A DNA stretch of 6,321 bases from IMG/VR virus record IMGVR_UViG_2681813201_000017. One strand, 5' to 3'. Positions 114-6,296 of this stretch are shown one piece after another (positions within the stretch are counted from its first letter, which is position 1; every line of letters starts with the position of its first letter). The notes under the pieces are model-generated. The model was not told the DNA's origin and made no database searches. It saw nothing but the letters and a program-made list of their open reading frames with translations. The position numbers and the translations under genes are program-made. Source of the stretch: a virus. Taxonomy: Duplodnaviria; Heunggongvirae; Uroviricota; Caudoviricetes.

Positions 114-686
114 TTACACAGACTGACGTGATGCCAGTTGCGCACTTTTACGCGAAAAAATCATGTTCTGCGCAGGGGTGAATTTTTCACGGCTGTCATC
201 CACAGAAGCCGCGTCAGGCCTGAATCCGATAGTCGTTAAAATGTCGCTATCCTGTGCGGAATAATTAATTTTTTCACCCTTCGCAAGCCAGGACAGGAGG
301 GCTTCACGCAGGGCATCTGTGGCACGCTGTATGGCACAGTTTCGGGCAATGGCCGTCAGCTCACTGTAGCCCATCAGCTCCGGTGCCAGTGCCGCCGCCA
401 GTGCTGTGCCGTGCTGCTGCATAAAATCATTCAGCCGGTCGCGGATGCTGATGTGCTGAACGGCTTCATGCGAACGAATATAACGACCGGCGGCCTGATT
501 CACCTGCCATTTTCTGACTTCGATAATATTGCGTAATTCGTCCAGGCGACTGACGTTTCTGCCTTCTCCTGACAGAAGCCGCAGGTATTCCTGTTCGGCC
601 GCTGCCAGCTCATTTTTGCGTTGCAGCCATGCTGCTTTGTTATTCTGACAGGTGTCAAAGGCCTGCTGTAAGGCTGTGCTTTCCAT
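114..686 (-). CDS. psu: Psu, polarity suppression protein (Rho antagonist / capsid decoration) of P4-type satellites, 190 aa
   Basis: ORF of exactly 190 aa as in P4 Psu; N-terminus MESTALQQAFDTCQNNKAAW matches my recollection of P4 Psu; last gene of the sid-delta-psu operon order; AGAGA-type RBS upstream of ATG at 686. Confidence 0.9.
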   Translation of the reverse strand: MESTALQQAFDTCQNNKAAWLQRKNELAAAEQEYLRLLSGEGRNVSRLDELRNIIEVRKWQVNQAAGRYIRSHEAVQHISIRDRLNDFMQQHGTALAAALAPELMGYSELTAIARNCAIQRATDALREALLSWLAKGEKINYSAQDSDILTTIGFRPDAASVDDSREKFTPAQNMIFSRKSAQLASRQSV

Positions 687-759: not shown

Positions 760-1260
760 TCATTCCAGACGCAGCGAATATGATTGTGTTTTTAACCGTA
801 CTGGCGGCAGTTCCTGTTTTTCATGCAGGCGTTCTGCCAGTTCGTCCGGCGTGACCGGGCGGACAATGAAGCGGGTGATGGTCTGAAGCGTTTTAAACAC
901 CAGACCACAGCCCGGATCCGTGCACACATAAAAACGCTCGGTGACTTCCTGAGACAGACGCCGCGATGTTCTTGACAGTGCAAGGCCTTTACATCTCCGA
1001 CAACAATATCCGGTAACAAGCATTCTTTTCGGGCGTTTCATACTGCCGGAGGCTGACGTCAGTGAATCGCGGTATCTCTGTTTGCCTGAAATGTATTCCA
1101 TTCCTGAATCTTTACAGTCAGAGAAAAAGCTTTCACTCGCTTCAAATGTCGCAGAGCAATAAATATTCCGGCACTGTGCAATCATTATCTTGGTGCCATC
1201 GTCCATGAAATGTGCGCGACGGGTGTGAGCAACATGTCCACACGACGGGCAGTAAATCAT
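760..1260 (-). CDS. delta: Delta, late-gene transcriptional activator with two tandem Ogr-type zinc-finger domains, 166 aa
   Basis: Start chosen at ATG 1260 (MIYCPSCGH...) rather than the ORF-track start at 1317, because this ATG overlaps the sid stop (ATGA at 1257-1260) and gives the 166 aa expected for P4 Delta. Two Cys4 modules are visible (CPSCGH...CRNIYC and CRRC...CTDPGC), as in Ogr/Delta. Confidence 0.85.
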   Translation of the reverse strand: MIYCPSCGHVAHTRRAHFMDDGTKIMIAQCRNIYCSATFEASESFFSDCKDSGMEYISGKQRYRDSLTSASGSMKRPKRMLVTGYCCRRCKGLALSRTSRRLSQEVTERFYVCTDPGCGLVFKTLQTITRFIVRPVTPDELAERLHEKQELPPVRLKTQSYSLRLE

Positions 1261-2262: not shown

Positions 2263-2317
2263 ACGATCCCATTATGCCGCGAGTCAATGGTAGCTCAGGC
2301 GGGGCAGCCTCCGGGCT

Positions 2318-2345
2318 GGCCGGTATTCTTCGAGGCCGGTATTCT
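2318..2345 (+). repeat. Tandem direct repeat GGCCGGTATTCT x2 (2318-2329 and 2334-2345) in the leader of the rightward operon
   Basis: Two perfect 12-nt copies 16 nt apart, separated by tcga. Position corresponds to the immunity region of P4-type elements, where short sequences pair with the CI antisense RNA; assignment is inference. Confidence 0.35.
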
Positions 2346-2358
2346 CACCCCCGTCTGG

Positions 2359-2400
2359 GCTATCGCCATCGAGCGTGAGAACTCCGGCGATAGCAGTTAT
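2359..2400 (+). promoter_or_regulatory. Hairpin (9-bp stem, 18-nt loop) followed by a U-rich stretch; candidate attenuator or terminator upstream of the first rightward ORF
   Basis: gctatcgcc (2359-2367) pairs with ggcgatagc (2386-2394); followed by cagttatttgct. It sits immediately before the AAGGAGG RBS at 2411-2417. Confidence 0.3.
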
Positions 2401-2424
2401 TTGCTACTCGAAGGAGGCTGCCTT

Positions 2425-2622
2425 ATGGCTACAACCCTTACCCCCTCACACCCTGAATTTGTCTTTGTGTTTGCGGCTGTCCGTCGCGCAGACCGTCATC
2501 CCCGTATCTGTATGCTTCGCACCGTCGCCGGTGATGAACGCAGTGCCCGCCGTTCCCTTGTCCGTGACTATGTGCTCTCCCTTGCTGCCCGTCTGCCGGT
2601 GGTGGAGGTGTCCCGTGCGTAA
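2425..2622 (+). CDS. Small 65-aa protein, first ORF of the rightward (early/left-operon-like) transcription unit; occupies the position of kil in P4
   Basis: ATG 2425 preceded by strong RBS AAGGAGG (2411-2417, 7-nt spacing); stop TAA 2620-2622 overlaps the GTG start of the next ORF. Identity with P4 Kil is inferred from position only. Confidence 0.45.
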
Positions 2623-2902
2623 TAAAAAAGCCCCTCAGACCGTCTCAGCGCGTCATGACGCCCGTGAACACCTCAGCATTGAGGCTTACCATAAGCTCAA
2701 CCGCGCCAGCGCCGTATCCCAGTTTGTTGGGGGTGATTTGATTCACCGTGAACTCTCCGGCCTGCATCAGCTCTACATTCCGCATATTTTCAGCTACCTG
2801 AATGAAGATATTGATTTTGTGCTGAATGAACTGAAAGCCAAAGGCCTGTGCCGCGATTTTCTCGCCCAGCAGAAAGACCGGGGAGACAGGACGCATGTTT
2901 GA
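2615..2902 (+). CDS. 95-aa protein at the position of P4 Epsilon (helper prophage derepression); start at GTG
   Basis: GTG 2615 preceded by GGAGG (2604-2608, 6-nt spacing). The longer ORF-track version (from 2375) has an N-terminal part that overlaps the 65-aa ORF in another frame and lacks an RBS. Stop TGA 2900-2902 overlaps the ATG of the next ORF. Size and synteny fit Epsilon; I cannot verify the sequence. Confidence 0.5.
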
Positions 2903-3350
2903 TTTTCCCCAGCCCGGTGAGATTTACCGTTCTGCCGGTTTTCCCGATGTGGCCGTGGTCGGCATTCTGGAAGACGGTATTCCGTGGGAAATGCCGTACC
3001 GCTGCCCGGAAATTGTCTGGAACCCGTACCGCCGTAAATTCAGTATCCTTGTGCGTATCCTCGCTGACGGACGCACCACAGACATCCCGCTGGGGCGTTT
3101 TCTGCGGGAATTTACCTGTGACCGTCCTGACCTGTTTAAACGCAGCCCCGTAAACCGGCATGCGGTACTGAAAGAAATGGCCGGAGACCCGGAATTACAG
3201 AAATGGCGGGAAAAATATCTGGATATTTACCCGCAGGACACTGTTCCGGTCAGCCGGGCAGCACCGGTGGCGCGGGAATGGCGGGAAATTCCCCGCACGG
3301 AGCCTGACCCGGAAACCACCCCGGATAACAGTTACCGCAATTATCTGTAA
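2895..3350 (+). CDS. 151-aa hypothetical protein (size and position of P4 orf151), function unknown
   Basis: ATG 2895 with GGAG 2882-2885 upstream; start overlaps the stop of the preceding ORF (ATGTTTGA); uninterrupted 151 codons in a compactly packed operon. Confidence 0.7.
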   Translation: MFDFPQPGEIYRSAGFPDVAVVGILEDGIPWEMPYRCPEIVWNPYRRKFSILVRILADGRTTDIPLGRFLREFTCDRPDLFKRSPVNRHAVLKEMAGDPELQKWREKYLDIYPQDTVPVSRAAPVAREWREIPRTEPDPETTPDNSYRNYL

Positions 3351-3378
3351 TTAAAAAACGACCCCCGAAAAATTAAAT

Positions 3379-3404
3379 GTGCGTATTCGCGCAGGGATAC
3401 GCAC
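3379..3404. promoter_or_regulatory. Inverted repeat / hairpin in the intergenic region between the 151-aa and 106-aa ORFs
   Basis: gtgcgtat (3379-3386) pairs with atacgcac (3397-3404), 8-bp stem and 10-nt loop. There is no T-run on the + strand; on the - strand it is followed by atttaatttttcggggg, so as a terminator it is oriented against the operon. Confidence 0.35.
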
Positions 3405-3423
3405 GTCTTCAGGAGACGCAGAT

Positions 3424-3489
3424 ATGCCTTATCAGTTAATGCAACCGGCACGGAATGCAGTCATCTGTCACAGGGAGAAAAGCAAATGA
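3424..3489 (+). CDS. Candidate 21-codon upstream ORF / leader peptide ([21 protein letters not shown]) coupled to the 106-aa ORF
   Basis: ATG 3424 preceded by AGGAG (3411-3415, 8-nt spacing); stop TGA 3487-3489 overlaps the ATG 3486-3488 of the next ORF (ATGA). Confidence 0.25.
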
Positions 3490-3806
3490 AAACACCCTTA
3501 CCGCCCGTCTTACGCGCTGCCCTTTACCGTCGCGCTGTCGCCTGTGCCTGGCTGACCGTGTGCGAACGTCAGCACCGCTACCCGCATCTCACCCTTGAGT
3601 CACTGGAGGCGGCCATCGCCGCTGAGCTGGAAGGCTTTTATCTGCGCCAGCACGGTGAGGAAAAAGGGCGTCAGATAGCCTGTGCCCTGCTGGAAGATTT
3701 AATGGAATCCGGCCCCCTGAAGGCCGCGCCGTCGCTGTCCTTTCTCGGGCTGGTTGTGATGGATGAACTCTGTGCCCGTCACATAAAAGCGCCGGTACTG
3801 CACTGA
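3486..3806 (+). CDS. 106-aa hypothetical protein immediately upstream of alpha, function unknown
   Basis: ATG 3486 with GGGAGA upstream; ends 14 nt before the alpha start; same strand and compact operon arrangement. Confidence 0.65.
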
Positions 3807-3820
3807 AGGAGAACAACACC

Positions 3821-6154
3821 ATGAAAATGAACGTAACCGCCACCGTCAGCCATGCGCTCGGCCACTGGCCGCGTATTCTCCCGGCGCTGGGGATTCAGGT
3901 GCTGAAAAACCGTCATCAGCCCTGTCCGGTCTGTGGCGGGAGTGACCGCTTCCGTTTTGATGACAGGGAGGGGCGCGGCACCTGGTACTGCAATCAGTGT
4001 GGTGCCGGTGACGGCCTGAAACTGGTTGAAAAGGTGTTTGGTGTTTCCCCGTCCGACGCGGCCGCAAAGGTGGCTGCCGTGACCGGCAGCCTGCCCACGG
4101 CTGACCCGGCAGTGACGGCCGCCGCCGGCGCTGAAACAGACGCTGCCCGGAAGAACGCCGCCGCACTGGCACAAACCCTGATGGCAAAAACCCGTCCCGG
4201 AACCGGTAACGCCTACCTGACCCGCAAGGGCTTTCCCGGCCGGGAATGCCGGATGCTGACCGGCACACACAGAGCCGGTGGCGTGAGCTGGCGCGCCGGT
4301 GACCTTGTGGTGCCACTGTATGACGACAGCGGCGAACTGGTTAACCTTCAGTTAATCAGTGCTGACGGCCGTAAGCGCACCCTGAAAGGCGGACAGGTCA
4401 GGGGCACCTGTCACACCCTTGAAGGACAGAATCAGGCCGGAAAACGTCTGTGGATAGCGGAGGGATACGCGACCGCACTTACCGTACATCACCTGACCGG
4501 TGAAACGGTGATGGTGGCGCTTTCTTCCGTGAACCTCCTTTCTCTGGCCAGCCTTGCCCGGCAGAAGCATCCGGCCTGTCAGATTGTCCTTGCCGCAGAC
4601 CGTGACCTCAGCGGTGACGGCCAGAAAAAAGCCGCCGCAGCCGCAGATGCGTGTGAGGGCGTTGTTGCCCTGCCGCCGGTCTTCGGTGACTGGAATGATG
4701 CCTTCACGCAGTACGGCGGGGAGGCCACCCGTAAGGCCATTTATGATGCCATCCGGCCACCGGCTGAAAGCCCGTTCGATACCATGAGCGAAGCGGAGTT
4801 TTCCGCCATGAGTACCAGCGAAAAGGCCATGCGTATCTATGAGCATTACGGCGAGGCGCTCGCGGTCGATGCCAACGGCCAGCTTCTGTCCCGCTATGAA
4901 AATGGTGTCTGGAAGGTGCTGCCGCCACAGGACTTTGCCCGGGATGTGGCCGGGCTGTTTCAGCGTCTGCGCGCGCCGTTCTCCTCCGGGAAGGTGGCCT
5001 CCGTGGTGGACACCCTGAAGCTGATTATTCCGCAGCAGGAAGCCCCCTCCCGCCGCCTGATTGGCTTTCGTAACGGCGTGCTCGACACGCAGAACGGCAC
5101 GTTCCACCCGCACAGTCCGTCACACTGGATGCGCACCCTGTGCGATGTGGATTTCACCCCGCCGGTGGACGGTGAAACGCTGGAGACCCACGCCCCCGCG
5201 TTCTGGCGCTGGCTTGACCGTGCCGCCGGTGGCCGTGCGGAAAAACGCGACGTGATTCTGGCCGCACTGTTTATGGTGCTGGCAAACCGCTACGACTGGC
5301 AGCTCTTTCTGGAGGTGACCGGTCCCGGCGGCAGCGGCAAAAGTATCATGGCCGAAATAGCCACCCTGCTGGCCGGGGAGGATAACGCCACGTCGGCCAC
5401 CATCGAGACGCTGGAATCCCCGCGTGAACGTGCCGCGTTAACTGGCTTCTCACTGATACGCCTGCCGGACCAGGAAAAATGGAGCGGCGACGGAGCCGGA
5501 CTCAAGGCCATCACCGGCGGCGATGCGGTGTCCGTTGACCCGAAATACCGGGATGCGTACTCCACGCATATCCCGGCGGTGATTCTGGCCGTGAACAATA
5601 ACCCGATGCGCTTCACCGACCGCAGCGGCGGCGTGTCACGCCGGCGGGTGATTATTCACTTCCCGGAACAGATAGCCCCGCAGGAGCGCGACCCGCAGCT
5701 TAAGGACAAAATCACCCGCGAGCTGGCGGTCATCGTGCGTCACCTGATGCAGAAGTTCAGCGACCCGATGCTCGCCCGGTCACTGCTTCAGTCCCAGCAG
5801 AACTCAGACGAGGCACTGAACATCAAACGGGATGCCGACCCGACGTTTGATTTTATCGGCTATCTGGAAACCCTGCCGCAGACCAGCGGCATGTATATGG
5901 GGAACGCCAGTATCATCCCGCGTAATTACCGTAAATACCTCTATCACGCCTATCTGGCCTACATGGAGGCAAACGGCTACCGGAATGTACTCAGTCTGAA
6001 AATGTTCGGGCTGGGGCTGCCGGTGATGCTGAAGGAATACGGACTGAATTACGAGAAGCGCCATACCAAACAGGGGATACAGACCAACCTGACGCTGAAA
6101 GAGGAAAGCTACGGCGACTGGCTGCCAAAATGTGACGACCCTGCAACAGCCTGA
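3821..6154 (+). CDS. alpha: Alpha, bifunctional DNA primase-helicase and origin-binding replication protein of P4-type satellites, 777 aa
   Basis: 777-aa ORF with AAGGAG RBS (3806-3811). N-terminal zinc-ribbon CPVCGG...CNQCG (nt 3923-4000), primase motif EGYATA (nt 4460-4477), Walker A GPGGSGKS (nt 5321-5344). N-terminus MKMNVTATVSHALGHWPRILPALG matches my recollection of P4 Alpha. Confidence 0.95.
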   Translation: MKMNVTATVSHALGHWPRILPALGIQVLKNRHQPCPVCGGSDRFRFDDREGRGTWYCNQCGAGDGLKLVEKVFGVSPSDAAAKVAAVTGSLPTADPAVTAAAGAETDAARKNAAALAQTLMAKTRPGTGNAYLTRKGFPGRECRMLTGTHRAGGVSWRAGDLVVPLYDDSGELVNLQLISADGRKRTLKGGQVRGTCHTLEGQNQAGKRLWIAEGYATALTVHHLTGETVMVALSSVNLLSLASLARQKHPACQIVLAADRDLSGDGQKKAAAAADACEGVVALPPVFGDWNDAFTQYGGEATRKAIYDAIRPPAESPFDTMSEAEFSAMSTSEKAMRIYEHYGEALAVDANGQLLSRYENGVWKVLPPQDFARDVAGLFQRLRAPFSSGKVASVVDTLKLIIPQQEAPSRRLIGFRNGVLDTQNGTFHPHSPSHWMRTLCDVDFTPPVDGETLETHAPAFWRWLDRAAGGRAEKRDVILAALFMVLANRYDWQLFLEVTGPGGSGKSIMAEIATLLAGEDNATSATIETLESPRERAALTGFSLIRLPDQEKWSGDGAGLKAITGGDAVSVDPKYRDAYSTHIPAVILAVNNNPMRFTDRSGGVSRRRVIIHFPEQIAPQERDPQLKDKITRELAVIVRHLMQKFSDPMLARSLLQSQQNSDEALNIKRDADPTFDFIGYLETLPQTSGMYMGNASIIPRNYRKYLYHAYLAYMEANGYRNVLSLKMFGLGLPVMLKEYGLNYEKRHTKQGIQTNLTLKEESYGDWLPKCDDPATA

Positions 6155-6161
6155 CCCACCT

Positions 6162-6186
6162 GACCGGCATCTGCCGGTCTTTTTTT
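6162..6186 (+). terminator. Rho-independent terminator of the alpha operon
   Basis: GC-rich hairpin gaccggc-atct-gccggtc (6162-6179) immediately followed by tttttttat (6180-6188), 8 nt after the alpha stop codon (6152-6154). Confidence 0.8.
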
Positions 6187-6204
6187 ATCCCTGAATTCCC
6201 CGAA

Positions 6205-6296
6205 GGTGAACAATCCACTGTTCACCCTTCACCGTATATTCACCCGTTATCACACTGAAATTAAAAGAGAAAAACGAAAGGTGAACAGTGTGAACA
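6205..6296. repeat. Cluster of TGTTCACC-type iterons in both orientations downstream of alpha (crr-like cis replication region)
   Basis: GGTGAACA 6205-6212 (inverted), TGTTCACC 6219-6226, degenerate cCTTCACC 6226-6233 and TaTTCACC 6237-6244, GGTGAACA 6280-6287, tGTGAACA 6289-6296. The first two form an inverted pair GGTGAACA-atccac-TGTTCACC. An A8/T6 tract follows at 6304-6320. Confidence 0.6.

Follow-up and report, generated by a model that had tools for sequence, protein, structure and literature searches.

The two copies of the 12-nt direct repeat GGCCGGTATTCT very probably represent parts of a regulatory RNA: they lie within the gene for the CI immunity RNA of satellite phage P4, where they correspond to the two arms of the second hairpin of this RNA together with the starts of its recognition boxes. 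Here, the window denotes the whole stretch of DNA analyzed (6,321 nt), with coordinates counted from its first letter. The preliminary description of this sequence named the right system, namely, P4-type immunity in which leader sequences pair with the CI antisense RNA, but considered the repeat to be a leader target of that RNA, whereas the repeat is inside the RNA gene itself. Both the feature and the RNA to which it belongs were known before: descriptions of this RNA, of its targets and of the repeat in P4 date from 1984-1999, and the family is curated in Rfam.

When the whole window was searched, GGCCGGTATTCT was found without mismatches only at positions 2318-2329 and 2334-2345, on the plus strand in both cases, with a start-to-start offset of 16 nt, which confirms the two identical 12-mers originally reported. 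The copies are perfect and close, but the term "tandem" does not strictly apply, given that a 4-nt spacer, TCGA, stands between them. Among the local direct repeats of the window (offsets of up to 30 nt), GGCCGGTATTCT is the longest, and it exceeds the usual chance expectation: in 200 dinucleotide-preserving shuffles of the window, the longest local repeat measured 8.5 nt on average, and a repeat of at least 12 nt arose twice. The repeat is located, as described, between a run of undetermined bases (N-run; 2188-2262) and the ribosome-binding site and ATG at 2411-2427. The exact reverse complement of the 12-mer does not occur in the window, and the sole near-match on the minus strand (2378-2389) contains three mismatches and belongs to the seqC target of the CI RNA. 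Since this is the only near-complement in the window, the 12-mer does not pair as a unit.

The window is collinear with P4 (X51522) at 98.7% identity; positions 1-2187 correspond to P4 11573-9387 and positions 2270-5290 to P4 8521-5500, both segments being 98.6-98.7% identical. The gene set is that of a P4-type satellite, with psu, delta and sid as well as the CI RNA, kil, epsilon, orf151, cnr and the alpha primase-helicase in the P4 order. The open reading frames (ORFs) of 190, 65, 95, 151, 106 and 777 aa agree with the P4 annotation, and the N-terminal extensions of the sid and delta ORFs in the window stem from the mechanical ORF call. The protein-coding genes are the following:

psu: 114-686, minus strand
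delta: about 760-1260, minus strand
sid: 1257 to about 1991, minus strand
kil: 2425-2622, plus strand; 65-aa Icd-like ORF (NCBIfam NF033153, phage_ICD_like, E = 1.6e-21, residues 12-59)
epsilon: 2615-2902, plus strand; match to the Derepression family PF25738
orf151: 2895-3350, plus strand
cnr: 3486-3806, plus strand
alpha: 3821-6154, plus strand

The first translated gene after the CI RNA is kil, the product of which is 100% identical to P4 Kil. This gene is the C-terminal part of a longer frame, eta, which in complete relatives spans 199 aa, encompasses a Phage_ASH domain (residues 22-146) and extends across the RNA gene. In P4, the transcript initiated at a constitutive promoter inside eta is rapidly terminated via RNA interactions at CI and seqA, and the stable CI RNA results from processing of that transcript; Kil is a truncated product, the late promoter is the only one from which full-length Eta is translated, and termination is prevented by Eta translation (PMC10111431). 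The 199-aa frame with its C-terminal 65-aa ORF fits this published eta/kil model. The protein frame that contains the RNA gene was found at 2263-2622 in the window, at 3506-4105 in the related locus L003 and at 8168-8584 in P4. The GenBank and RefSeq records of P4 still label this stretch as protein ("cI gene product AA 1-137," "transcriptional repressor"), a leftover misannotation.

A scan of the window against all of Rfam produced one match, to the C4 antisense RNA (RF01695), at 2283-2370 on the plus strand, with a score of 74.3 bits against a gathering threshold of 45 (E = 1.2e-13) and coverage of model positions 1-87 out of 87; the CI region of P4 scores 74.9 bits against the same model. 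Both copies of the 12-mer are contained in this gene, the C4 membership of which is thus observed directly, as are its fold and the place of the repeat in that fold. The minimum free energy (MFE) structure (-48 kcal/mol, z = -5.35) consists of three parts, a long closing stem around two adjacent hairpins, as in the Rfam C4 model, the second hairpin being the GCCGG/CCGGU stem. For comparative analysis, 85 related loci were collected using the 65-aa ORF (Kil) as the query, 5 from genome contigs and 80 from viral contigs; these, along with the records of P4 and of the Escherichia coli O145 prophage, gave 46 distinct segments, which together with the window make up the 47 sequences of alignment A1. 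The 27 pairs of the structure are 100% paired in all 47 sequences. The elements of the RNA, and the two copies of the repeat within it, are arranged as follows:

CI immunity RNA gene (c4-type antisense): 2283-2370, plus strand; assigned from RF01695, the MFE fold and the 98.7% identity to P4 from 2270 onward
Closing stem P1: 2289-2304 with 2349-2364, plus strand; 16 pairs, 100% paired in the 47 sequences, 3 pairs changed on both sides
Hairpin 1 (CAGCC UCCG GGCUG): 2305-2318, plus strand; 5 invariant pairs, the last G (2318) being the first base of copy 1
Hairpin 2: GCCGGU 2319-2324 with GCCGGU 2335-2340, plus strand; 6-bp stem with a 10-nt loop
Copy 1: 2318-2329, plus strand; G2318 closes hairpin 1, GCCGGU 2319-2324 forms the 5' arm of hairpin 2, and loop box a' begins with AUUCU 2325-2329
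Copy 2: 2334-2345, plus strand; G2334 (last loop base of a'), GCCGGU 2335-2340 (3' arm) and AUUCU 2341-2345 (start of b'/seqB)

A direct repeat can form a hairpin in this case because GCCGGU is self-complementary when G.U pairs are included (G.U, C-G, C-G, G-C, G-C, U.G); more generally, a direct repeat with a self-complementary core, such as CCGG, can represent the two arms of an RNA hairpin. Both arms of hairpin 2 are invariant in all 47 distinct sequences. Judging from the modeled fold, the mature CI RNA probably extends from approximately 2289, the base of the closing stem, to approximately 2368, the end of a GCCA tail that follows the closing stem directly (2365-2368). By analogy, this tail could be an RCCA-like RNase P determinant. 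The substrates of RNase P include CI RNA and C4 RNA (PMC5499578).

Between hairpin 2 and the ATG, the related sequences comprise 25 variants, in which changes in two boxes of the RNA are accompanied by changes in two boxes downstream:

Box a' (UUCUUCGAG): 2326-2334, plus strand; loop of hairpin 2, pairs with a2
Box b' (P4 seqB): 2342-2352, plus strand; joint UUCUCAC at 2342-2348 running into CCCC, pairs with b2 and b1
Box b2 (P4 seqC core, GAGCGUGAGAA): 2371-2381, plus strand; GUGAGAA, downstream target of b', with 7 pairs between b' and 2381-2375
Box a2 (CUCGAAGGA): 2407-2415, plus strand; target of a', overlaps the kil Shine-Dalgarno sequence AAGGAGG at 2411-2417

The Shine-Dalgarno sequence stands 7 nt before the ATG at 2425, so that the a2/b2 region covers the ribosome-binding site of an icd-like gene, and a' and b' are complementary to a2 and b2, respectively, as is characteristic of the C4 family. 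The comparison with P4 proposed at the outset proved informative: b' is seqB, b2 is seqC, and the upstream pair of boxes detected in relatives, b1-a1, is seqA, with limits for the three segments that we take to be the published ones. The four helices formed by the boxes of the CI RNA with their targets are supported as follows:

Helix a'-a2: 9 pairs (with 2415-2407), 99.0% of cells paired, 6 pairs changed on both sides (alignment A1)
Helix b'-b2: 7 pairs, 100% paired, 6 pairs changed on both sides (alignment A1)
Helix b1-b': 7 pairs, 99.7% paired, 6 pairs changed on both sides (relatives only)
Helix a1-a': 8 pairs, 98.1% paired, 6 pairs changed on both sides (relatives only)

The two upstream helices were counted in relatives only, given that the N-run masks this region in the window. 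That all four intermolecular helices covary is a direct observation: in the control, in which the 3' partners were slid by 1-3 columns, pairing of the whole structure was 34-50% for the downstream set and 38-53% for the upstream set. Prediction of RNA-RNA interactions, another check that had been suggested, gave a concordant result: the window's own a'/a2 duplex has a predicted energy of -12.9 kcal/mol, compared with a mean of -5.5 kcal/mol against non-cognate types, and across the types, cognate a'/a2 duplexes average -12.4 kcal/mol versus -5.5 kcal/mol for the non-cognate ones. The initial statement that a complement is missing from the visible sequence is accurate for the exact 12-mer, but imperfect partners are present at 2371-2381 and 2407-2415. 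The search for exact complements missed them because GGCCGG pairs inside the RNA and the partners are imperfect, with wobble pairs, a limitation that affects any search of this kind when antisense partners are imperfect. The suggestion that the partner could lie in the masked block was likewise partly right, in that seqA is located there in relatives; the other partners are in plain view.

A further conserved hairpin follows the CI RNA:

Conserved hairpin (GCUAUCGCC / GGCGAUAGC): 2359-2367 with 2386-2394, plus strand; 9 pairs, 98.8% paired, 3 changed on both sides

Its 18-nt loop contains b2 (seqC), AGUUAUUU comes immediately after it, and six bases of its 5' arm are also part of the 3' strand of the CI RNA closing stem; hence, on one unprocessed transcript, this hairpin and the closing stem are mutually exclusive. 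We take the hairpin to be a candidate for the P4 terminator t4, which Sabbattini et al. reportedly mapped at the site of the seqC hairpin in 1995. A simple scan for promoters and terminators in the region 1990-2700 detected none, the 18-nt loop of the seqC hairpin being outside the rules of the scanner.

Three other explanations of the repeat were considered. The first holds that the 12-mers are leader target sites for a CI antisense RNA encoded elsewhere, perhaps in the hidden block, that is, for an RNA complementary to GGCCGGUAUUCU. The early-operon leader transcript does include the repeat, which precedes the first strong ribosome-binding site, and P4 immunity does act by RNA pairing within the leader. 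However, the repeat is inside a structured RNA itself, the hidden block of the relatives contains seqA, a target, and no second C4-type RNA, and the GGCCGG segment never varies and pairs within the RNA, whereas the rest of the repeat pairs with 2371-2381 and 2407-2415. We therefore regard this explanation as very improbable. Still less credence can be given to the proposal that the copies are direct-repeat half-sites on DNA for a regulator such as the alpA-like Orf88, Cnr or the alpha protein, as the preliminary description envisaged for a DNA-binding protein. Two identical 12-mers at a fixed spacing of 16 bp with a GCCGGT core that is invariant in 47 of 47 sequences would be compatible with a protein-binding site, but this invariance is explained by the conserved RNA stem, and in most relatives, the copies share only 6-8 nt. 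Furthermore, the bases flanking the core vary only together with compensating bases 45-90 nt away, such that Watson-Crick pairing is maintained, a pattern that is not predicted for a protein site, and the known alpha motif, TGTTCACC, is unrelated to the repeat. Finally, a functionless by-product of chance or coding, either a peptide repeat in eta or a duplication caused by replication slippage, is just as implausible as the half-sites: although the eta ORF reads through the stretch and 2 of the 200 shuffles reach 12 nt, with an offset of 16 nt, the copies are read in different codon phases (WPVFF versus EAGIL) and do not encode a peptide repeat, and the core is invariant at both positions across diverged elements, including N15 and PY54.

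The assignment of the repeat to the CI RNA thus being strongly favored, a mechanism can be proposed for the element. The CI RNA, a c4-type antisense RNA of approximately 80 nt, would be cut from the leader transcript of the early operon, with RNase P, according to the literature, releasing it from the longer transcript. The processed RNA would then pair, either in trans or within the nascent transcript itself, with two bipartite targets: upstream, b1-a1 (seqA), which in this element would lie within the N-run, and downstream, b2-a2, that is, seqC at 2371-2381 and the kil Shine-Dalgarno region at 2407-2415. By extension from the published systems, such pairing is expected to block translation of kil and to promote premature termination of transcription, the likely sites being an intrinsic terminator that follows seqA, the hairpin that encloses seqC and, further downstream, the Rho-dependent timm. 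The genes epsilon, orf151, cnr and that of the alpha primase would consequently remain silent in the prophage. The 65-aa size of P4 Kil, the terminators t1, t4 and timm and the limits of seqA, seqB and seqC are taken as those established for P4. Secondary support for these is available (PMC4825925; PMC10111431), and pairing of the CI RNA with two segments that flank cI, seqA on the upstream side and seqC on the downstream side, has been reported to lead to termination (PMC4825925). The view of CI as the effector side rests on the family assignment and the literature, given that covariation alone does not tell which of the partners acts on the other.

The N-run deserves separate consideration. 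It consists of 75 N (2188-2262), whereas P4 has 865 nt at this place and the E. coli O145 prophage, the flanks of which are 99.8% identical to the window, has approximately 857 nt. In these closest relatives, the corresponding region (about 857-865 nt) contains the ori iterons, the alpA-like orf88, the early-promoter (PLE) region, positioned according to the literature rather than by a scan, seqA (b1-a1) and the intrinsic terminator t1. The seqA region of the relatives matches Rfam isrK (RF01394) and c4-a1b1 (RF03163), and b1-a1 is succeeded by a hairpin and a T run (GACGCGCCAUGCGUC UUUUUUU). The edges of the N-run (2180-2187 and 2263-2282) differ from all relatives, with ttaaGaaaa on the left and ACGATCC plus a 1-nt deletion on the right. 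The right edge, ACGATCCCATTATGCCGCGAGTCAATGG, had no matches in IMG/VR and is absent from all 5426 complete E. coli genomes, the best match (98.8%) starting from query base 8. The N-run looks like an assembly gap flanked by poor contig ends.

Comparison of the alleles shows how the perfect repeat came about. The conservation that had been expected of the repeat holds for the GCCGGT core (47 of 47 relatives) and not for the length of the perfect repeat, which varies between 6 and 12 nt: of the 86 loci, 16 have 6 nt, 45 have 7-8 nt, 3 have 9-10 nt, 11 have 11 nt, and another 11 have 12 nt. In the window, the a' allele UAUUCUUCGAGG is found together with the b' allele of P4, UAUUCUCAC. Relative to a' of P4 (UAUCCUGUGAAG), its a' box has four changes in 12 positions, three of which are matched by changes in a2, adjacent to the kil Shine-Dalgarno sequence, whereas the fourth, C to U at 2328, still pairs with a G of the Shine-Dalgarno sequence, as a G.U wobble. 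It is because of this C to U change and the final G of the loop that the repeat reaches 12 nt. The perfection of the 12-mer is therefore incidental, arising from the invariant arms in conjunction with one particular a' allele and the P4 b' allele.

Altogether, nine a-alleles and six b-alleles were seen in 15 combinations in the 86 loci. P4 has a' = CCUGUGAA with b' = UCUCAC, and the type found in the window has a' = UCUUCGAG with the same b' = UCUCAC, while types with UCCUAC also occur. Three loci, L003 (3601-3632), L063 and L077, are natural recombinants in which the upstream a1 does not fit the element's own a'; in L003 and L063, an a' of the window type is combined with a P4-type a1 (TTCACAGGC), and nine other loci with the same CI RNA have the matching a1, CTCGAAGGC. 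Since a1 is mismatched in the closest complete relatives of the window (E. coli O145; L003, L063), the a'-a1 contact may be absent in this element as well. In two further loci, L022 and L067, the a' allele TATCCTATGACG has no good partner on the Shine-Dalgarno side, with the best duplex at approximately -6.4 kcal/mol compared with -13 to -15 kcal/mol in the others, and the a2 region has a deletion of 1-2 nt; these may be decaying or escaped immunity modules. Tentatively, we consider a combinatorial immunity code, possible although rather doubtful at this stage, in which a' and b' are independent exchangeable modules, each with its own targets, so that the 12-mer would mark an immunity type that is partly heteroimmune to P4, with a1 being dispensable or used only in part. 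Heteroimmunity between P4 and phiR73 through seqB has reportedly been published already; the modular two-box picture and the mismatched recombinants are the only parts that might be new. The natural compensatory series available for all four CI-target helices, together with the a/b combinations, could be used to address the specificity of immunity among co-resident P4-like satellites.

The closest counterpart of the feature is the CI RNA of P4 itself, which occupies the same locus, with the fold, the b' box (UUCUCACCCCC), seqC and the Kil protein all identical to those of the window. In the 1984 GenBank record of P4, X02534, the same repeat is marked as "imp. direct repeat 4 / 4'" (GCCGGTATCCT / GCCGGTATTCT); the P4 repeat is imperfect over 11 nt, whereas that of the window is perfect over 12 nt through its a' allele. 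The c4 RNA of phages P1 and P7, encoded in immI (a1 b1 - c4 - a2 b2 - icd - ant), belongs to the same Rfam family, RF01695, and is accompanied by c4-a1b1 (RF03163). Members of the c4 family resemble the RNA of the window in having a long closing stem and two hairpins, with one box in a loop and one just 3' of hairpin 2, and targets both upstream, as seen in the relatives of the window, and downstream, of which the downstream one lies over the ribosome-binding site of an Icd-like gene. The Rfam C4 consensus reads GCCGGuUUcC...CCGGUuUgCc. The downstream genes differ, being epsilon, cnr and alpha in P4-type satellites, as opposed to an antirepressor gene in P1 and P7, and, unlike in P1 and P7, the reported outcome in the P4-type systems is termination of transcription in the leader (PMC4825925; PMC10111431). 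The comparison with P1 is founded on Rfam family membership and established knowledge, and in a tblastn search with Kil, P1 icd was not reached at E <= 1e-3. A 2010 catalogue already included the motifs of the c4 antisense RNA and of c4-a1b1 (PMC2864571).

The linear plasmid-prophages N15 and PY54 likewise encompass, in this order, an isrK-like a1b1 region with a terminator, a C4 RNA and icd, with matching boxes of their own in each case, and PY54 contains a near-repeat (GGCCGGUAUCC / GGCCGGUAUUCC). These are temperate phages rather than satellites, the Icd identity is 44-50%, and an antirepressor gene is located downstream in N15. In P4-type elements, the match to the IsrK sRNA of the Salmonella prophage Gifsy-1 (RF01394) falls in the seqA region, on the target side, and not in the repeat.

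Two groups of elements were noticed elsewhere in the window. Copies of the octamer TGTTCACC (GGTGAACA on the opposite strand), which is the "ori type 1 repeat" of the P4 record and the known binding motif of the alpha protein, are present at 2161-2178, where they represent a remnant of ori adjoining the N-run, and at 6206-6296, just past alpha. In addition, terminator-like hairpins with a T-run flank the gene blocks (40-80 and 6158-6190), gcaaagccatgca...tgcatggcttttttc being found near the end of psu and ccggcatctgccggtcttttttt after alpha.
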